Source: a phage
DNA length: 64,000 bases
Sequence record: PZ151149.1
Reading direction: 5' to 3' (one strand)
Position numbers and translations under genes: made by a program. This document shows positions 1 through 19,495 of the stretch, in pieces. The notes beneath the pieces were generated by a model. The model searched no databases and was not told the origin of the DNA. It saw only the letters and a program-made list of their open reading frames with translations. Numbering within the stretch: the first letter of the stretch is position 1; each line of letters begins with the position of its first letter.

Positions 1-360
1 TTAGTCACGGGAAGACAACCCAGCCATAAAACGGCTTAAAAGCGTGTCACGATAAGCAAAGCATAATTGCTTATCAGGGGCAGTATCACACAGGTTGCGT
101 TTTGTTTTAGCGAAACTGGCAATACTAAGATCCCATGCTCGATTTTTTCGTTTTTCATCTCGGCCTTGTTTATAGGCTTCGTCGAGTTCAAGTGCGATAA
201 AATCGCTACACATGTTATCATCATCACAGAAGGTTTTAATGATCTTTTTGTTGATCTCAAATCCTTTGTATTCGAACTTTGGATAAGGTCGCTCATTACT
301 AGCAAGCGCACCAGCAGAGAACATCATAGCAATCATAGCAATTATTGTCAACTTTTTCAT
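1..360 (-). CDS. hypothetical secreted protein with N-terminal signal peptide (119 aa)
   Basis: ORF with hydrophobic N-terminus MKKLTIIAMIAMMFSAGALA; stop at window position 1-3; directly downstream of the SLT gene. Confidence 0.5.
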   Translation of the reverse strand: MKKLTIIAMIAMMFSAGALASNERPYPKFEYKGFEINKKIIKTFCDDDNMCSDFIALELDEAYKQGRDEKRKNRAWDLSIASFAKTKRNLCDTAPDKQLCFAYRDTLLSRFMAGLSSRD

Positions 361-367
361 ACATTCC

Positions 368-958
368 TCAATAGCGTTTAGTTTTAAGAATGCCTTTACT
401 CTTTAGATGGTTAGCTTTTTTTAGTACGTCATCAGCATAACCTAAACCGGCTTTATAGTTCCACCCTGCATTGTAAGAAGCTAGCGCGAGTCGGATATTA
501 CCGTTTCGAACATCCAGCCAGTATGCTAACTCATCCATCGCGTAGAATGCAGAAACCTCGCGATTCATGATAAAGTTGATAGTCTGGCGATCACTCATTT
601 TAACACCGCGCTTTGCATTTTTCGCTTTCACCGTTTTAAGGTAATTTTGAAATAATCCATAAGCATGATGATTTTTCTTTGGTGATAAGTTTGCACCCGC
701 GCTTGATTCTTGCCATGCGATACCCGCCAAGATGTGACCTAAACCCTTTCCGTTATAGCGAATATTCGGATGGTCCTTTTTCAACTTACCGCTTTTCTCG
801 AATTGCTCGCCGTATTGATAGGCGAAATGTAAATTATCTAGTTGGTGTGCTGTAAAGTTGTCTATCGGCGCTTTTTTGATCGGTGCGCTAGTCGATGCGT
901 GTGTAGCACCAACGGCTAGTGACAGACTCAATACTATCGCTTTTAGAACTTTTAACAT
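368..958 (-). CDS. lytic transglycosylase (SLT-domain) with signal peptide
   Basis: Signal-peptide-like N-terminus; motifs WQESS...YGLFQ...ASYNAG typical of soluble lytic transglycosylase family; RBS AGGAG upstream. Confidence 0.6.
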   Translation of the reverse strand: MLKVLKAIVLSLSLAVGATHASTSAPIKKAPIDNFTAHQLDNLHFAYQYGEQFEKSGKLKKDHPNIRYNGKGLGHILAGIAWQESSAGANLSPKKNHHAYGLFQNYLKTVKAKNAKRGVKMSDRQTINFIMNREVSAFYAMDELAYWLDVRNGNIRLALASYNAGWNYKAGLGYADDVLKKANHLKSKGILKTKRY

Positions 959-992
959 TAATTTCTCCTGTTTGGCTTAACTTTCTGATTCC

Positions 993-1021
993 ATAATATA
1001 GCCCTATCACCAGAAAGTCAA
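993..1021 (-). promoter_or_regulatory. sigma70-like promoter (TTGACT-N17-TATTAT) upstream of the lytic transglycosylase gene
   Basis: Hexamers read on minus strand with 17-nt spacer. Confidence 0.4.
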
Positions 1022-1043
1022 GCATTAATTTAACAAATTTCCA

Positions 1044-1466
1044 TTATTGGTCTACCCTCAAAACAACAGCCGACATTTTACCCGCAAGTCGTTTTGGATT
1101 CTCTATAATCATTCGGCAGCATAGACCGTGATACGGTTTACCCTCTTCGATTAGATCTACTGTCATTCCGATCCACATGTTACCGTCAGTAATTTCTAAT
1201 CGATTAGGTCGGTCTTCCATTTTCAGGAAGTCGAAGATCTCCGGCAAACGAGTTTCTACCTTATTGAATAGTTCCATTGTCTTATGTTCATCGATATGAC
1301 GATCGGTTAATCTGTCGATCATATGTGGACTAAAGCGAATGAAAATATACTCGCCGTAACCATCATTCAAGCACTTTTCTTTGATCTGCGCATTGGTTTT
1401 GCGCATTTCGGTTTCGAAGAATCTGCGCAGCTTACTACGGCGAACATGTACGTTAATTGTTTCCAT
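1044..1466 (-). CDS. hypothetical protein (140 aa)
   Basis: ORF from ATG at 1466 with AGGAG RBS; track ORF extends upstream without RBS. Confidence 0.5.
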   Translation of the reverse strand: METINVHVRRSKLRRFFETEMRKTNAQIKEKCLNDGYGEYIFIRFSPHMIDRLTDRHIDEHKTMELFNKVETRLPEIFDFLKMEDRPNRLEITDGNMWIGMTVDLIEEGKPYHGLCCRMIIENPKRLAGKMSAVVLRVDQ

Positions 1467-1467
1467 T

Positions 1468-1806
1468 TTATTCTCCTTTCTTGAACAAATTGCGAAGCCA
1501 GTATACAAACGGGATTTCTTTAAACTTGAATTTCTCTATAGTTAATTCTTTAGTAGCAAGATGAATACCATAAGAATCATGTGTCACGATATGCCATTTT
1601 CTATAGTCCAAATGTGAACAACCATTTGAATCTAGGTTAATAATAGTTTCTCGCTCACTAGGATTGTTTTTCCACGATTTTGTAATCGGATCGCACATAA
1701 TTCGACCTAGCGTACCATGAATAATCTCGCATTTGTAAACCTTTCCGGCAGTGATATAAGCGCAACCGTCATAGTCGGTATAAACAAACACTTCTTTAAC
1801 ACTCAT
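1468..1806 (-). CDS. hypothetical protein (112 aa), member of small tandem paralog group
   Basis: ATG at 1806 with AGGAG RBS, preceded by conserved promoter-leader module; shares CSHLD..W motif with next two ORFs. Confidence 0.5.
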   Translation of the reverse strand: MSVKEVFVYTDYDGCAYITAGKVYKCEIIHGTLGRIMCDPITKSWKNNPSERETIINLDSNGCSHLDYRKWHIVTHDSYGIHLATKELTIEKFKFKEIPFVYWLRNLFKKGE

Positions 1807-1837
1807 TTTAATACTCCTTTGTAGTTTCGATGGGGGT

Positions 1838-1866
1838 ATATTACTACCCCCGTTTTGACGTGTCAA
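1838..1866 (-). promoter_or_regulatory. early promoter-leader module copy 1 (TTGACA-N17-TAATAT)
   Basis: Consensus hexamers, 17-nt spacer, leader ACCCCCATCGAAAC then AGGAG. Confidence 0.6.
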
Positions 1867-2112
1867 CTACTTTTTCAAGAATTTTTTGAGTACATTCCAA
1901 AGACCTTTATTCTCGGCTTGTTTTGGTTCTTCGATCAGTGTCCATGTTCGACCGTCTAAGTGTGCACAATTTTTAAGGCAAATAAAAATCTGGTGTCCCT
2001 TATCATCACGGATATAACCACTATTCGCAAATCTTTCATGTGGTGTATATTCATACAGTGTATTCGGTGTAATATACTTGCGGTTACTATAAGGTGTCGT
2101 TACATATTTCAT
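1867..2112 (-). CDS. hypothetical protein (81 aa), tandem paralog
   Basis: ORF; motif Y.TP...GYI.DD.G..I...L..C.HLDG..W shared with 2109..2303. Confidence 0.45.
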   Translation of the reverse strand: MKYVTTPYSNRKYITPNTLYEYTPHERFANSGYIRDDKGHQIFICLKNCAHLDGRTWTLIEEPKQAENKGLWNVLKKFLKK

Positions 2113-2303
2113 GGTACTAACTCCCAACGATCACCGCGAAGATGAGAACATCCACCATCAAGAAGGATCGTAATACGAAACCCCGCATCATCTTCAATAT
2201 ACCCGATAGTCGGTGGATGTTCGTCGTCTCGTGTCGGGGTAAAATCATACATCTTTCCCGGTGTGATATCATTGCCTTTATTGCTATTGGTATAAACTTG
2301 CAT
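2109..2303 (-). CDS. hypothetical protein (64 aa), tandem paralog
   Basis: ORF; same motif as neighbour; stop overlaps next start (ATGA). Confidence 0.45.
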   Translation of the reverse strand: MQVYTNSNKGNDITPGKMYDFTPTRDDEHPPTIGYIEDDAGFRITILLDGGCSHLRGDRWELVP

Positions 2304-2324
2304 TTTCTTAATCTCCTACATTAA

Positions 2325-3023
2325 CTAACCACGGGTATAGTGTTCCAGAACAACGGTCAGATGAATATATTCTAATAAATCTTTCCAAAAGTCAACATCT
2401 GGTTCTTCCGGCATACCGTTTTTCTTTGCCTCTTCACGCGCGAGTTTAACACGCTCGTAGAGATCTTTCAATTCTTCCCGCACATTATCAAAGGTTCTTT
2501 CTCCTAACTTACACGCTAAAATAGAAGAACGTCGCGCGAGAGGGAATTGTAGATCACCAGTCTGATAGATTTCAAGTAGCTGATAACCAACACGCAGAGC
2601 ATGAGAAAGGTCTTTCCAGTTACTGAAATACTTTTCAGATTTGGCTACCTGCTTTTTGAGATAACCGGAGCACCCCCACATACCAACATGATAGAATTTA
2701 TCGCGATGTGTTCGGATGTATTCCCATTCTCTGGAGGATTCAATCAACATGTTACTAGGCGCGTGCACCATGTCAATAGCGCCGATATCACCTTTACATG
2801 CCAGATTGATAAACCGTTTTAGACTGAACATATTAACGTCAATATCGTCTTTGGTGTTCTTGATACCTTGACCGCTAGTGCTTTGGTCATAGTGTTCTTT
2901 CATCGATCCTAAGATAATTTCTTTCGCAGTCGGAACAAAGATACCACGATAATCTTTATCGGAATTTTCAGTATCAAGGCCGTATAAGTGAGATCCGAAG
3001 ACCATTTTAACCATTGTATGCAT
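2325..3023 (-). CDS. nucleotidyltransferase-like protein (Pol-beta-type NTase fold)
   Basis: N-terminal GSHLYGLDTENSDKDYRG motif (GS..YG...SD.D) typical of predicted nucleotidyltransferases; start may be one of three nearby Met codons. Confidence 0.5.
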   Translation of the reverse strand: MHTMVKMVFGSHLYGLDTENSDKDYRGIFVPTAKEIILGSMKEHYDQSTSGQGIKNTKDDIDVNMFSLKRFINLACKGDIGAIDMVHAPSNMLIESSREWEYIRTHRDKFYHVGMWGCSGYLKKQVAKSEKYFSNWKDLSHALRVGYQLLEIYQTGDLQFPLARRSSILACKLGERTFDNVREELKDLYERVKLAREEAKKNGMPEEPDVDFWKDLLEYIHLTVVLEHYTRG

Positions 3024-3036
3024 AATTAAACCCTCA

Positions 3037-3567
3037 TTAGTATTTTACGTTACGTCGAACGCCTTTTCGAATCTGACAAATAGCAGACGGTGAAACATTA
3101 TATTTTCTTGCAAGTTCTACACCCTTCATATGGGGAGAAGATAAAATCTCTTCCACTTGGTCGTCGGTAAGTTTTGCGTTTCCGTGGTTCTCTCCCCAAT
3201 TGTTGTTTAATCCTTCTTCCTTCGCATGAACAAGATTTCGGGTATCTGTCGTCCATTCAAGATTATAAAGGTCATAGTTTTGTTTGTTTCCATCCTTATG
3301 ATTAACTACACGGTAGTTATTTGGATTCGGAATAAACGCAACCGCCATAGCTTTATGCATGTTCACGGTTTTTCTAAATCCATCCGGCTTATAACATACT
3401 GTAAATTTAGAATAACCAGTTTTACCATAAACACTAATATAATTTCCGGTCTCTGTATTTCTAACCCTACCATGAGAGCTAATCTCAAATTGAGTGTAGG
3501 GCAACAGCGCATCAATCACTTTCCATTCTTCGACAGGATGGTCATCACAATATCTTTTAATCATCAT
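3037..3567 (-). CDS. HNH homing endonuclease (NUMOD4-like N-terminus)
   Basis: Motif VNHKDGNKQNYDLYNLEW (HNH) and N-terminal W..I....YEIS..GRVRN pattern; sits after a terminator between conserved genes. Confidence 0.65.
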   Translation of the reverse strand: MMIKRYCDDHPVEEWKVIDALLPYTQFEISSHGRVRNTETGNYISVYGKTGYSKFTVCYKPDGFRKTVNMHKAMAVAFIPNPNNYRVVNHKDGNKQNYDLYNLEWTTDTRNLVHAKEEGLNNNWGENHGNAKLTDDQVEEILSSPHMKGVELARKYNVSPSAICQIRKGVRRNVKY

Positions 3568-3614: not shown

Positions 3615-4031
3615 TTACATTGCTTCCGTAAAGGTGCGCGAAATAACGTCACGTTGTTGGTCTGGAGTCAGACTATTGAATCTTACGGCATATCCGCTAA
3701 CGCGAATGGTTAGTTGCGGATACTTATCAGGATTAGCAACCGCATCAAGAAGAAGATCGCGACTCATCACATTGATATTCGCGTGCTGACCACCTTCGAC
3801 AACCGGAGCGCCATTATCTACAACAACCGGACGGAAGCTAGTTGTGTGCAGTGCCAGCGAATCGACGTCTTCGGCGGTGATCACATGTTCTTCTGCGAAA
3901 GTTTTACTAACAATTACTTTAGCGCCGATCAGTGCTTTCGGTTCGGATACCAGAATCATAGGCGCGAAGTGTCCACCGATAATAGTACCTTTATGCTCAC
4001 CTTTCATGATTTGAATTGCTTTAAATTCCAT
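3615..4031 (-). CDS. grcA: autonomous glycyl radical cofactor (GrcA/YfiD-like)
   Basis: C-terminal glycyl-radical fingerprint [13 protein letters not shown] identical in type to pyruvate formate-lyase/GrcA; T4 is known to encode a YfiD homolog. Confidence 0.75.
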
Positions 4032-4714: not shown

Positions 4715-5104
4715 TTATTTTGGATCTGGGTATTTGCTGTGTGGCAATTGTAGATGAGGACCATCTTTGAAACTAGACCAATCCCCACCCCATTCAACAG
4801 GAACACCCAATTCTCGACCAGCTTGTTTAAATGCATCAGCGATCATGCGGTAATATTTCATGTTCCATGTATCCTTATCTTTAGGATACGCTACAACGTC
4901 AACCGCGAAACCGTGAAGATGACGAGATTTCATAGTCTTAGATTTACCTTCCGCAACATATTTCTTTTGCGTTTCTAGACTACGCACACCTTCCGTAATA
5001 CCAAAATCGACCGGAGTCAGTTCTAATGCACGATGAACGACTTTTACCAGGTCTGGATGTACACCAACAAGCCGATCTTTGCTTCTTTGAGATAATTTAA
5101 ACAT
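4715..5104 (-). CDS. L-alanyl-D-glutamate peptidase endolysin (peptidase M15, T5 Lys-like)
   Basis: Close resemblance to remembered phage T5 endolysin N-terminus (V.P.L.KV..RALEL.P.DF.I..G.R) and SRHLHGFAVDV zinc-binding motif. Confidence 0.7.
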   Translation of the reverse strand: MFKLSQRSKDRLVGVHPDLVKVVHRALELTPVDFGITEGVRSLETQKKYVAEGKSKTMKSRHLHGFAVDVVAYPKDKDTWNMKYYRMIADAFKQAGRELGVPVEWGGDWSSFKDGPHLQLPHSKYPDPK

Positions 5105-5132: not shown

Positions 5133-5324
5133 TTAGATTCCTGTGATCCTGCATAGAGTTCTTGTATTAGCACCAATCAGGATCGCATTAACGGCAACCA
5201 TTCCCCAATCAACCCACGGATTATTATAAATGCTAAATCCGTTTGCTAGGCCAAATACAAGCATTCCGGTACACATACTCAGAGCAATAATCAACATCAC
5301 GGTAAAACCAAATGCAAATCTCAT
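5133..5324 (-). CDS. small membrane protein (63 aa)
   Basis: ORF, two hydrophobic segments. Confidence 0.4.
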   Translation of the reverse strand: MRFAFGFTVMLIIALSMCTGMLVFGLANGFSIYNNPWVDWGMVAVNAILIGANTRTLCRITGI

Positions 5325-5325
5325 A

Positions 5326-5541
5326 TTATTTTCCTTTTCTCTGTTTACGTTTATAAAAGTAATACATTACCTCATCGCGTCCGGTGATCCAACATGCTAG
5401 GGCGGTAAACAGGTTTACAATTCCCAACACACCTACGGATGCGGCGCTGTCAACAGACATAGGAACAGTAAAGGCCATAACTAACATAGCAACGCCACAA
5501 ATGACATTAAGCACCATTATAATAAGACCGAAGAAAACCAT
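5326..5541 (-). CDS. holin-like small membrane protein (71 aa from internal ATG; long form starts 5592)
   Basis: Two hydrophobic helices followed by basic tail YKRKQRKGK; ATG at 5541 lies 3 nt after upstream stop. Confidence 0.4.
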   Translation of the reverse strand: MVFFGLIIMVLNVICGVAMLVMAFTVPMSVDSAASVGVLGIVNLFTALACWITGRDEVMYYFYKRKQRKGK

Positions 5542-5543
5542 TG

Positions 5544-5723
5544 TCAATCCTCCGACACAAGAAAACCAACAATCACGCCAGTGATAAGACATGATGCACC
5601 GCTAATAAGACAACCCGCGCCAAGTGATTCCCACCATATAAGGGAAGCGACGATAACACAGAGTCCCCAGACTACAGCAATCACAACATAGGCAATGGTC
5701 GCCCAAAACATATATTTGTTCAT
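5544..5723 (-). CDS. small membrane protein (59 aa)
   Basis: ORF; ATGA start-stop overlap with upstream gene. Confidence 0.4.
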   Translation of the reverse strand: MNKYMFWATIAYVVIAVVWGLCVIVASLIWWESLGAGCLISGASCLITGVIVGFLVSED

Positions 5724-5908
5724 AATAAATCCCATTCACCAAACAAATAAGAAAAAAGCCATATCAACAGAAACGAGGCGATTGATCCAGCAAGCAAAAT
5801 GATATTAGAGAATCCGCCGTCTATCCAGCCAATCAAACAGAATACGCCAGTATAGAAGCACAACCCCAGCACAAAGCATACTATAATCAACCATAGATAA
5901 AACGCCAT
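5720..5908 (-). CDS. small membrane protein (62 aa)
   Basis: ORF, strongly hydrophobic. Confidence 0.4.
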   Translation of the reverse strand: MAFYLWLIIVCFVLGLCFYTGVFCLIGWIDGGFSNIILLAGSIASFLLIWLFSYLFGEWDLL

Positions 5909-5969
5909 AGAAAGCCCTCCAGTTAGCTAATTTAGTGCGGGTAGTACATTCCCCTACCCGCTTTGTTAA

Positions 5970-6128
5970 TCAACGTAGAGCTTGTTCTAAAGCGATTCCA
6001 AACCATCCGCAAACAACACCCATACAGACAGCGACAAGAAGACTCATTCTCTCTTTAGGGATCATTGCAATCATAACAACAACCATACAGAAAGCCATTA
6101 CCATTGCAGTTAACATTTGTTCAATCAT
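5970..6128 (-). CDS. small membrane protein (52 aa)
   Basis: Minus-strand ORF MIEQMLTAMVMAFCMVVVMIAMIP...; below the ORF-track size cutoff; track shows only an antisense ORF here. Confidence 0.35.
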   Translation of the reverse strand: MIEQMLTAMVMAFCMVVVMIAMIPKERMSLLVAVCMGVVCGWFGIALEQALR

Positions 6129-6130
6129 TA

Positions 6131-6445
6131 TCACACCTTCAAAGTCATAGACGCATAGACATTAATACCAGGCCAGTTAGGATCGCAATTATACTCAACA
6201 TCCCATAGATAAAGCGGTTTAGATGTATCAGCCAGGTTTTTAAAATCTTCTACCCACATTTCAAGGCTATATGAAGGATAAACTAGGCTATCATACCCTC
6301 CGTAACGTTGGCCTACTGGTCGGTCAGTAAAGACTACCTCAAGATCCGGTAATTCTTTTTCTAGGATAACCGCCAGCGCATAAATCAGGCGGTCTTCCTT
6401 GTTACGCTGCCGTAGGACCGTTGTCAGTTGGTTCGTCTGGTTCAC
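6131..6445 (-). CDS. hypothetical protein (about 104 aa)
   Basis: ORF; likely GTG start at 6445 with GGAGG RBS 9 nt upstream; overlaps 3' end of upstream gene. Confidence 0.4.
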   Translation of the reverse strand: MNQTNQLTTVLRQRNKEDRLIYALAVILEKELPDLEVVFTDRPVGQRYGGYDSLVYPSYSLEMWVEDFKNLADTSKPLYLWDVEYNCDPNWPGINVYASMTLKV

Positions 6446-17695: not shown

Positions 17696-19495
17696 ATGCT
17701 AATGTTTAATAACTCCGTTAAATGGTTTACCGGAATTGTAGAAAACAGGGAAGATCCATTAATGCTGGGGCGCGTTCAGGTTAGGATTCATGGTATACAT
17801 CCTTCGCTATCCGCACACGGTGACATTCAAGGTCTCCCAACCGAAGATCTATTATGGATTACGCCAGTACAAGACATTACAAGCGCGGCGATCTCCGGTA
17901 TAGGTCAAAGTCCTACTGGTATTGTTGAAGGTTCAATGGTATTTGGATTGGCTTTAGATGAACGTTATTTAAACTGCGTTATTCTGGGTACTATTGCCGG
18001 ACAATATACAGAGAAACCACTCACTACAGAAGGTTTTTGTGACCCTTCGGGTGCATATCCTCGTTATATTGGTAATGATGTTAATATTCTTGCCCGTGGC
18101 GGTATTAACCCAGAAACCGGACAAACAACAAAACCTGATAGTGTCTATATTCGAGATGAAAACACTGGAGTTGCAGTAAATCCAGACGACGAGCCATTAG
18201 ATCAAATTCCGGTTGATGATAATCCTGATTTTACAATAGAAAAAATGCTTCGTGGCGATGAGGGATATCGTGAGAAATGGTATCTTGATTCAGAAGGATA
18301 TCCGACAATAGGCATCGGGCATTTGATCATTTATAAGAAAACCAGTGATCTGGGTATTATCAATAATGAACTTTCTAAGCTGGTAGGGCGTGAAGTTACA
18401 AACGGAAGACTTACCGCCGAAGAAGTTAGTAAAGTATTTGCCGACGATATAGAAAAGACCCGTCGTGATATGCGCAAACATCCACGAATTGCACCTGTCT
18501 ATAATAAATGTAATGCTTCTCGTCGTATGGCATTAGAAAATATGGCGTTTCAAATGGGCGTTGGTGGATTGGGTAAATTTAAGAATAGCCTTGCTGCAAT
18601 GCTAGCAGAAGAATGGAAACAAGCCTATGATGGATTACGTCAATCGGTATGGGCTAACCAAACTCCAGGACGCGCCAACCGTGTTTCTAAAATTATTCTT
18701 ACTGGTAACTTAGAATCATATGGCGTAATTGCTCCTAAGAAAGAGGAATCAATTTCTGATGATCCGAGAGCACGTTTGAGAAAAACCCGTATTGCTGCAT
18801 ATAAGACGCAGAGAGCAGAAGAAGACCCAGAAGCACCGTTTACCCCACAAGATACACGAATCATGTTTAAAGAGCCTAAGAGTTCGTATTCTGCAAGGTA
18901 TCCATATAACCATGTGTACGAGTCAGAGAGCGGTCATATTATCGAGATTGATGATACTCCTTCTCATGAGCGATATCATCGTAAACATCCTTCTGGTACA
19001 TTTGAAGAAACCAGACCGGACGGAACGAGGGTAGAAAAGATTGAAGGTGATGATTATCTGATCGTTAAACAAGGCCGGAAAGTAAACGTTAAGGGTAATT
19101 TGCAAGTTGTTGTTGAAGGTGACGCGCAAGTTTATTATATGGGTAATGTGATGCAAACCGTTGATGGTAACGTCACGGAATTTATTCGTGGTAATGTTAA
19201 TCAGACCGTTGAGGGTACAGCTAATATGCATGTTGTAGGTGATGTTACCGCTCAGCTTGACGCTAATTTAACGGCTAATGTCAAGGGTAATGCTGAATTA
19301 ATGATCGAGGGTAACACTACCGAAACAATTAAAGGTAACTATGATTTAACCGTTGAGGGTAATTTTAATATGACCGTCAATGGCACTAAATCAGATCAGG
19401 TTAATGGTGACTGGTCCCGTAATTGTGGTGCAAGCGTTAAAGATATTGCATCGGGTACAGTTAAAATTGATGGTAGCCGTATTGATCTTGGGTGA
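17696..19495 (+). CDS. 5: baseplate hub / tail lysozyme gp5
   Basis: Lysozyme core YLDSEGYPTIGIGHLI; C-terminal V.G repeats of a beta-helix; size 599 aa. Confidence 0.9.
   Translation: MLMFNNSVKWFTGIVENREDPLMLGRVQVRIHGIHPSLSAHGDIQGLPTEDLLWITPVQDITSAAISGIGQSPTGIVEGSMVFGLALDERYLNCVILGTIAGQYTEKPLTTEGFCDPSGAYPRYIGNDVNILARGGINPETGQTTKPDSVYIRDENTGVAVNPDDEPLDQIPVDDNPDFTIEKMLRGDEGYREKWYLDSEGYPTIGIGHLIIYKKTSDLGIINNELSKLVGREVTNGRLTAEEVSKVFADDIEKTRRDMRKHPRIAPVYNKCNASRRMALENMAFQMGVGGLGKFKNSLAAMLAEEWKQAYDGLRQSVWANQTPGRANRVSKIILTGNLESYGVIAPKKEESISDDPRARLRKTRIAAYKTQRAEEDPEAPFTPQDTRIMFKEPKSSYSARYPYNHVYESESGHIIEIDDTPSHERYHRKHPSGTFEETRPDGTRVEKIEGDDYLIVKQGRKVNVKGNLQVVVEGDAQVYYMGNVMQTVDGNVTEFIRGNVNQTVEGTANMHVVGDVTAQLDANLTANVKGNAELMIEGNTTETIKGNYDLTVEGNFNMTVNGTKSDQVNGDWSRNCGASVKDIASGTVKIDGSRIDLG

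Follow-up and report, generated by a model that had tools for sequence, protein, structure and literature searches.

In bacteriophage T4, the gene vs.1 is placed between regB and vs. The vs.1 product (T4p112, UniProt P13311, PHROG 600) combines a predicted signal peptide with an SLT domain. The SLT similarity has been in print since 2006, when it was given by Nolan et al. with a citation of earlier PSI-BLAST matches (PMC1524935). The vs product (T4p111, UniProt P13310, PHROG 1256, PF26829) carries the name of valyl-tRNA synthetase (ValRS) modifier. In time-resolved omics of T4, vs.1, vs, tk.1-tk.4, and vs.3-vs.6 were all recorded as early RNA, and their proteins were detected (PMC9697503). In a review-level statement, e and 5 are still the only lysozyme genes listed for T4. 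Herein, the counterparts of vs.1 and vs were analyzed in a stretch of phage DNA of 64,000 nucleotides (nt) (sequence record PZ151149.1), which is called the window below. They occupy its first 958 positions as two open reading frames (ORFs) on the minus strand.

Several described enzymes can be compared with Vs.1. Slt and MltD of E. coli and P. aeruginosa and the goose-type lysozyme have in common with Vs.1 the predicted fold, the E-S, G-L-x-Q, and (A/S)-Y-N-x-G motifs, and one putative catalytic Glu. Vs.1 is very divergent from this GH23 group and lacks accessory domains such as the superhelical domain of Slt or the LysM of MltD. The specialized lytic transglycosylases VirB1, P19 of plasmid R1, IpgF/IagB, and EtgA consist of a signal peptide and a bare SLT domain, have a length of about 150-200 amino acids (aa), and are thought to open local gaps in the cell wall. 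Vs.1 is like these enzymes in size and architecture only, with no homology beyond the SLT core. Unlike them, it has no envelope-spanning machine encoded beside it and no plasmid relatives. Since a tblastn search of a plasmid collection with Vs.1 gave no match, no link to the transglycosylases of conjugation systems can be drawn.

For Vs, the nearest likeness is T4 Spackle (gp61.3), a small early protein that is all-helical, disulfide-bonded, and made with a signal peptide that is cleaved off (PMC7650644). Spackle has five helices and one disulfide, and its target is the GH24 lysozyme of an incoming phage, whereas Vs has four predicted helices and four cysteines. The likeness is not homology: when Vs and Spackle were compared by hhalign, the probability was 0.9%, and only the signal peptide was aligned.

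Given the 2006 publication of an SLT similarity for vs.1, the description of vs.1 and vs as a secreted gene pair with an SLT enzyme is already known, and the genes have long been catalogued. Some GenBank records already carry the label "transglycosylase SLT domain-containing protein" or "non cytoplasmic". A literature search yielded no experiments on vs.1, and on vs.1 and the localization of Vs only Nolan 2006 and the HIDEN-SEQ preprint surfaced. Three observations are new. An export signal is present in every Vs-family member examined, with a lipobox in one subgroup; four cysteines are invariant in mature Vs; and vs, where it was detected in a sample of IMG/VR, lies directly downstream of vs.1 in 38/38 loci.

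Results

Identity of the gene pair

The source of the window is a Krischvirus, a T4-type phage of E. coli like RB49, JSE, and GEC-3S. Bases 1-3000 share 96-97% DNA identity with 59 Krischvirus genomes. Sequence profiles and gene order identify the two genes in the region 1..958 as orthologues of T4 vs.1 and vs (Table 1). The longer product gave a full-length profile match to PHROG 600 (unknown function; E=4.9e-60, residues 6-193), and the shorter one a full-length match to PHROG 1256 (valyl tRNA synthetase modifier; E=1.8e-33). Pfam PF26829 is precomputed on homologues that are 97% identical to the window Vs, and NCBIfam has no family for Vs.1 or Vs. Both proteins are 97-100% identical to their counterparts in about 59 sequenced Krischvirus phages, which indicates that they are real genes. 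In the related genomes, the first is labeled vs.1 or "hypothetical protein", and the second is labeled "valyl-tRNA synthetase modifier". The order regB, vs.1, vs, and tk.4 phosphatase is common to GEC-3S and T4. The original prediction, which described a two-gene operon of signal-peptide proteins including a lytic transglycosylase, was reasonable but incomplete. Its prediction of a secreted SLT enzyme stands; the identity of the two genes with T4 vs.1 and vs was not recognized in it.

Vs.1 of the window is 48% identical to T4 Vs.1 and belongs to the same length class. Unlike the T4 protein, it has 13 additional residues, STSAPIKKAPIDN, inserted behind the signal peptide. The spacer between regB and vs.1 is 85 nt with its own promoter in the Krischvirus and 7 nt in T4, and the junction between vs.1 and vs is a 7-nt gap in the window and an 8-nt overlap in T4. 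Vs is 30% identical to T4 Vs, and tblastn with the window Vs did not reach the T4-type Vs. The orthology of the two Vs proteins is supported by profile and synteny, and the predicted signal peptide and the four cysteines are common to both.

Table 1 Features of the vs.1-vs region in the window, with the basis of each call.
Feature	Position	Strand	Description and basis
vs.1 gene	368..958	minus	196-aa precursor of a predicted peptidoglycan glycosidase (SLT/GH23) with an export signal; T4 Vs.1 orthologue
vs gene	1..360	minus	119-aa precursor of a small protein with four predicted helices and four cysteines, predicted to be secreted; T4 Vs orthologue
Predicted Sec signal peptide of Vs.1	896..958	minus	Residues 1-21, cleavage between THA and S; rule-based
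Predicted Sec signal peptide of Vs	301..360	minus	Residues 1-20, cleavage between ALA and S; rule-based
SLT domain (PF01464) of Vs.1	458..733	minus	Residues 76-167; Pfam match and GH23 structure matches of the model
Codon of Glu84 in Vs.1	707..709	minus	GAA; predicted catalytic acid in the W-Q-E-S-S motif; family-invariant
Four invariant Cys codons of Vs	61..228	minus	C45 228..226, C51 210..208, C91 90..88, C100 63..61; 40 sequences
Stop of vs.1 and Shine-Dalgarno of vs	361..370	minus	TGA 370..368 overlapping GAGG 369..366, 7-nt spacer; sequence
Possible RegB cleavage motif	965..968	minus	GGAG within the vs.1 Shine-Dalgarno; sequence
Sigma-70 early-type promoter	993..1021	minus	TTGACT-17-TATTAT, 10/12 matches, precedes vs.1; consensus scan
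regB endoribonuclease	1044..1466	minus	Upstream neighbor on the same strand; Pfam REGB_T4, E=2.3e-48

Vs.1 in the SLT/GH23 superfamily

The sequence profile and the structural model both place the vs.1 product in the SLT/GH23 lysozyme-like superfamily. SLT-family motifs had been read in this ORF by the original prediction, which also named a profile search as a check. In this search, PF01464 matched residues 76-167 with 26.2 bits, above the gathering cut-off of 21.3 (E=6.5e-6). The motifs of family-1 transglycosylases were found as W82-x-E84-x-S86, G101-x-x-Q104, and S161-Y162-N163-x-G165. Both family alignments show E84, S86, G101, Q104, S161, Y162, and G165 without variation. At W82 and N163, one alignment is likewise invariant, and in the other the conservation is 90% or higher. 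The AlphaFold model of Vs.1 (predicted local distance difference test, pLDDT, 83) shows a lysozyme-like alpha-helical fold, and its top Foldseek matches in the PDB (3wyh, 8rhf, 3w6f, 5ohu, and 1sly) are all GH23 structures. These comprise goose-type lysozyme, MltD, Slt, and a GH23 chitinase, with probabilities of 0.91-1.0 and E from 8.5e-3 to 0.33. The invariant motifs and the fold of the model agree with the motif reading.

Predicted mature Vs.1 is a basic protein with a mass near 19.7 kDa that consists of little more than the GH23/SLT catalytic domain. As to its chemistry, the sequence points most probably to a lytic transglycosylase, because the Asp residues of the goose-type lysozyme are presumably not conserved in Vs.1 (K95 and Y106). 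Vs.1 has one conserved acidic residue, which is compatible with a transglycosylase but is no proof of it.

Vs.1 also matched the virion SLT families PHROG 342 and 2013, with E=0.004 and 0.0017. These matches are weak and limited to the SLT core (residues 76-171), and no structural-protein region is present in Vs.1. The SLT core is common to Vs.1 and to the SLT domains of T7 gp16-type internal virion proteins and lytic tail proteins, whereas those virion proteins are large, structural, and without signal peptides, and Vs.1 is small, early, and predicted to be secreted. Vs.1 as a virion-associated hydrolase was therefore rejected, on the signal peptide and on the restriction of the PHROG 342 and 2013 matches to the SLT core.

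Vs.1 as the phage endolysin was also rejected, in agreement with the original prediction. The window has a separate M15 endolysin, encoded by the ORF 4715..5104 (Peptidase_M15_4 match; PHROG 465 "endolysin", E=9e-69), while vs.1 has an early promoter and in T4 is early RNA and non-essential. Similarly, the separation of Vs.1 from the virion lysozyme was borne out, since the gp5 ORF 17696..19495 carries the lysozyme domain itself (Gp5_OB, Phage_lysozyme, and Gp5_C). Five small, very hydrophobic ORFs of 54-88 aa, each with 1-2 predicted membrane spans, were observed at 5133..6150 on the minus strand, immediately upstream of the M15 endolysin gene.

Export signals of Vs.1 and Vs

Signal peptides were called by rules, namely a charged n-region, an h-region of 10-15 residues, and small residues at -3/-1. 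The N-terminus of Vs.1, MLKVLKAIVLSLSLAVGATHA followed by STS, has two Lys in the n-region, a hydrophobic core of 12 residues, and a T-H-A site, with predicted cleavage after A21. Similarly, the N-terminus of Vs is MKKLTIIAMIAMMFSAGALA followed by SNE, with predicted cleavage after A20. T4 Vs.1 and T4 Vs have N-termini of the same type. Signal-type N-termini were also found in the orthologues of Gelderlandvirus, Jiaodavirus, Karamvirus, Bragavirus, Pseudotevenvirus, Biquartavirus, and two Acinetobacter phages.

The signal is conserved in both families. A hydrophobic signal-type N-terminus is present in 67/68 Vs.1 relatives from IMG/VR, and a signal peptide or a lipobox in 40/40 Vs-family proteins from a large protein database. 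All full-length Vs representatives from an exhaustive profile search likewise have an export-type N-terminus. In 7 Vs relatives of the Karamvirus type, a lipobox L-x-G-C (LSGC, LFGC, LLGC, or LVGC) replaces the AXA cleavage site. A lipobox is the signature of a lipid-anchored extracytoplasmic protein. Among the Vs.1 relatives, that of a Vibrio phage is annotated as a lipoprotein, and that of Klebsiella phage Mineola as "non cytoplasmic". From these N-termini, we infer that Vs.1 and Vs are actually exported and cleaved. The rule-based calls of signal peptides on both ORFs, already made in the original prediction, are backed by this conservation. Its proposal of a periplasmic action of Vs.1 follows from the presence of the predicted signal peptide. 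Vs, exported like Vs.1, would reach the same compartment.

Predicted structure and cysteines of Vs

Predicted mature Vs has 99 aa. The Vs model, built with a 40-sequence alignment, consists of four helices with pLDDT of about 80-94 over residues 40-119. In this model, C45 and C51 flank the loop between H1 and H2, and C91 and C100 are in the loop between H3 and H4. This arrangement suggests that Vs probably has two local disulfides, C45-C51 and C91-C100. A conserved G-L motif at the C-terminus is common to the window Vs and T4 Vs. The export signal, the lipobox variants, and the paired cysteines together suggest that Vs works outside the cytoplasm, which is hard to square with its label. The literature search found no paper discussing the export signal of Vs.

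Distribution and synteny of vs.1 and vs

Vs.1 relatives were found in 2,086 phage records, which belong to Straboviridae (T4-like), Ackermannviridae (Kuttervirus and a Vibrio phage), and Felixounavirus. The IMG/VR sample, obtained with the Vs.1 alignment, consists of 69 vs.1 loci, some of them on contigs of 240-264 kb. The vs gene was detected in 38 of the 69 loci, and in all 38 it directly follows vs.1 in the same orientation, the junctions ranging from -8 to +7 nt. The same adjacency was found in Gelderlandvirus, Jiaodavirus, Karamvirus, Bragavirus, T4, and the Acinetobacter phages examined, and the pair is kept in Acinetobacter phages that have no regB at that position. The sole exception seen was Citrobacter phage Miller, in which another gene and a terminator lie between vs.1 and vs. 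Among the more distant relatives of Vs.1, Vs is absent and no secreted neighbor recurs consistently.

The Vs family is narrow. An exhaustive profile search among 1.84 billion proteins gave 28 representative clusters at 50% identity. The hits are single-domain proteins of about 100-134 aa, except for one 513-aa protein with seven short matched stretches, and no Vs-SLT fusion was found in the 28 clusters.

Further genes were observed around these loci. Directly after vs, a number of other T4-like genera have a third gene for a protein with a signal peptide, of 130-146 aa (loci L004:1740-2132, L005:1737-2156, L003:1818-2219, L006:1722-2141, L007:1827-2258, and L013:2379-2819). The protein usually has two Cys and a mature part that opens with a stretch like N-A-W-E-K-L-P-G-Y-P, and the gene is absent from the window and T4. 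This third gene suggests a larger cassette of secreted proteins in those phages. In Felix O1-like phages (Felixounavirus wV8 gene 3, L008:1501-2094), a Vs.1-like gene with an export signal lies directly after rIIA-rIIB, genes that in T4 are also tied to lysis and membrane phenotypes. In the IMG/VR locus L079:1-4719, the SLT core is inside a 1,572-aa ORF that is presumably structural; the pattern search therefore also picks up non-orthologous SLT proteins.

Transcription and translation of the pair

The sigma-70 promoter of the window lies in the spacer after regB, and a promoter is annotated at the homologous place in GEC-3S. The overlap of the vs.1 stop codon with the Shine-Dalgarno sequence of vs (Table 1) is an arrangement classical for coupling, and as read from the sequence vs is translationally coupled to vs.1. 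The stop codon of vs coincides with the edge of the window. In related phages, the tk.4 phosphatase gene starts 15 nt beyond vs with no annotated terminator between them, and in the GEC-3S stretch the first annotated terminator is beyond tk and rI. This indicates that vs.1 and vs are a coupled pair within a longer early transcription unit, not a closed operon. The two-gene operon of the original prediction is thus retained as a coupled pair with its own promoter and given up as a self-contained unit; it appeared closed because the window ends at the vs stop.

The regB gene upstream was also inspected. Its mechanically called ORF, 1044..1508, starts at TTG and has 154 aa; the Pfam match and GEC-3S fit the ATG at 1466, which gives 140 aa. 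GGAG is the motif that RegB cleaves, and its occurrence in the ribosome-binding site of vs.1 was considered as a site of RegB control. The motif is also present in GEC-3S, two Acinetobacter phages, and Aeromonas phage AhFM11, while T4, STP4-a, Mineola, and CC31 have GAGG instead. RegB control through this motif was rejected, since it is not kept in T4 and several genera.

Farther along the window, an ORF for an HNH/NUMOD4 homing endonuclease of 176 aa was observed at 3037..3567 on the minus strand, between nrdC.11 (2325..3023) and the GrcA-like vs.6 (3615..4031). It is full-length in 5/59 Krischvirus records, including JSE, Whisky, 011D4, and phiS, and this distribution indicates a mobile insertion.

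Transposon insertions in T4 vs and vs.1

In a transposon study of T4, both vs and vs.1 were called non-essential (10.1101/2025.11.20.689424). In liquid competition in lysogeny broth (LB), the mean insertion counts were 26.6 for vs and 22.6 for vs.1, and those of the neighbors were 178.6 for regB, 289.6 for tk.4, and 652 for vs.3 (10.1101/2025.11.20.689424). Insertions in the pair thus had about 10-fold fewer reads than those in the regB and tk.4 neighbors. In M9 glucose, vs had a log2 fold change of -2.19 with an adjusted p of about 0, the authors' strongest depletion in that medium, and vs.1 had a log2 fold change of -0.87 with p=0.0055, adjusted 0.155 (10.1101/2025.11.20.689424). The two genes share a fitness phenotype that has no counterpart in the neighbors.

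Discussion

Taken together, the data make it quite probable that the locus encodes an early, secreted GH23 enzyme, Vs.1, and a co-exported Vs, as a coupled pair of orthologues of the T4 genes. Early transcripts would start at the sigma-70 promoter 1021..993 and probably also arise by read-through from regB, and they would run on beyond the window into tk.4 and tk. Vs.1 would be exported by Sec as the 196-aa precursor and cleaved after Ala21. With Glu84 as the sole catalytic acid/base, it would cut the bonds between N-acetylmuramic acid (MurNAc) and N-acetylglucosamine (GlcNAc) of the host sacculus from the periplasmic side. This action would be an accessory, non-essential remodeling of the wall, apart from lysis by the M15 endolysin and entry by gp5. 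Vs would be co-translated, co-exported, cleaved after Ala20, and probably oxidized, and it would act with Vs.1 or on another envelope target. As to the biological purpose of the pair, candidates include a loosening of the wall that would help the infected cell under slow growth, priming for lysis, or a link to the nearby lysis-inhibition gene rI.

Several points weigh against this explanation. The SLT match of Vs.1 is weak by sequence (26 bits), and the best Foldseek E, 8.5e-3, is modest. At the sequence level, neither protein alone nor the Vs.1 profile gave a meaningful match in the PDB. GH23 includes true hydrolases such as the goose-type lysozyme, so the transglycosylase chemistry of Vs.1 remains at the level of a prediction. 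The N-terminus could still be an anchor of the signal-arrest-release (SAR) type instead of a cleaved signal; a standard cleaved signal is likelier, because AXA-type sites occur in nearly all members. The low insertion counts in vs.1 could partly come from a polar effect on vs, and the transposon data therefore leave the relation between vs and vs.1 unsettled. Finally, Vs is said in the classical T4 literature to bind the cytoplasmic ValRS, which would argue for a cytoplasmic Vs, and the vs locus was reportedly tied to valS(ts) hosts in vivo by classical genetics, which weighs against dismissing the label.

The role of Vs can be read in more than one way. We put forward tentatively that the Vs proteins are exported to the periplasm, in some genera as membrane-anchored lipoproteins, and work with or alongside Vs.1. 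It is in our view doubtful that Vs is a cytoplasmic binder of the host ValRS whose N-terminus is unused or which acts before export; the adjacency to vs.1 would then merely be a conserved gene order. The ValRS-modifier annotation stands on all Vs relatives, a T4 study lists Vs as ValRS-binding with a citation of Müller and Marchin 1975/1977 (PMC8076793), and the authors of the transposon study, in which T4 vs is the most depleted gene in minimal medium, relate the depletion to translation (10.1101/2025.11.20.689424). However, the export signal is kept throughout the 40 Vs members, and the seven lipoboxes are sensible only outside the cytoplasm. The four invariant Cys are distributed over two short C-x(n)-C loops, as is typical for oxidized periplasmic proteins. 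Full-length His-tagged Vs expressed in the cytoplasm was insoluble (PMC8076793). In the 1986 T4 sequence record, the two ORFs appear only as "ORF 60.9" and "ORF 61.4", with "ORF 60.9" standing for vs, so the name vs was given to it later. For T4 Vs, the predicted mass falls from 13.1 kDa in the precursor to 11.0 kDa in the mature form. A mass of about 10 kDa, reportedly obtained for the purified factor that modifies ValRS, would fit a processed Vs. Within an exported Vs, a narrower role as a periplasmic partner of Vs.1, either inhibitor or regulator, was considered by analogy to Spackle, and we regard it as rather doubtful. The invariable place of vs after vs.1 in the IMG/VR loci that have it, the retention of the pair where regB is absent, and the shared predicted compartment would all fit such a partner. 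So would the M9 result, where insertions in vs hurt more than those in vs.1, a difference that would be predicted if the enzyme did harm when unopposed. A precedent is Spackle itself, a helical protein of 97 aa with a 22-aa signal peptide and one disulfide that binds a lysozyme domain in a 1:1 complex (PMC7650644). On the other side, Vs.1 relatives occur without Vs in Ackermannviridae, Felixounavirus, Aeromonas T4-like phages, and contigs of jumbo size, which shows that the enzyme does not need Vs. Citrobacter phage Miller has the two genes separated by a gene and a terminator, and the about equal depletion of vs and vs.1 insertions in LB is a misfit with a simple toxin-antidote relation.

For Vs.1, a role as an auxiliary lysis enzyme, that is, a secreted or SAR-type second endolysin contributing to the breakdown of the wall at the end of infection, appears unlikely. 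It would suit a protein with predicted peptidoglycan degradation and export; Nolan et al. suggested "some role in cell lysis" (PMC1524935), and the pair is about 2 kb from rI in T4 and within about 1 kb of it in Acinetobacter phages. The early promoter of vs.1 and its early RNA in T4 argue against this role, as do the dedicated M15 endolysin and the AXA-type cleavage sites, which favor a cleaved signal over a SAR anchor. In T4, moreover, the holin gene t is essential and vs.1 is not (10.1101/2025.11.20.689424). Superinfection exclusion, which the original prediction had offered as one possible role, or resistance to lysis from without, is very improbable. The timing and the predicted periplasmic compartment of the pair are those of T4 Imm and Spackle, but a wall-cutting enzyme would weaken the wall rather than protect it, and the pair has no similarity to Imm or Sp. 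No superinfection exclusion phenotype has been reported, and nothing in the analysis favors it.

Secreted enzymes of the Vs.1 type with an SLT domain are thus predicted in more than 2,000 phage records across T4-like, Vi1-like, and Felix O1-like phages, and no experiment on them was found. For specialists, a possible surprise is that the "valyl-tRNA synthetase modifier" family looks secreted and coupled to a secreted wall enzyme. The conserved export signal, the lipoboxes, and the cysteines of Vs contradict the textbook function. This conflict is timely, as the transposon screen makes vs the strongest conditionally important gene of T4 in minimal medium, and a re-assignment of a classic T4 gene may follow. 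If Vs does work in the periplasm, the label "valyl-tRNA synthetase modifier", now half a century old, would reflect a wrong ORF, an association formed only after cell breakage, or a secondary activity, and the recently reported requirement for T4 vs in minimal medium would concern the envelope and not translation.

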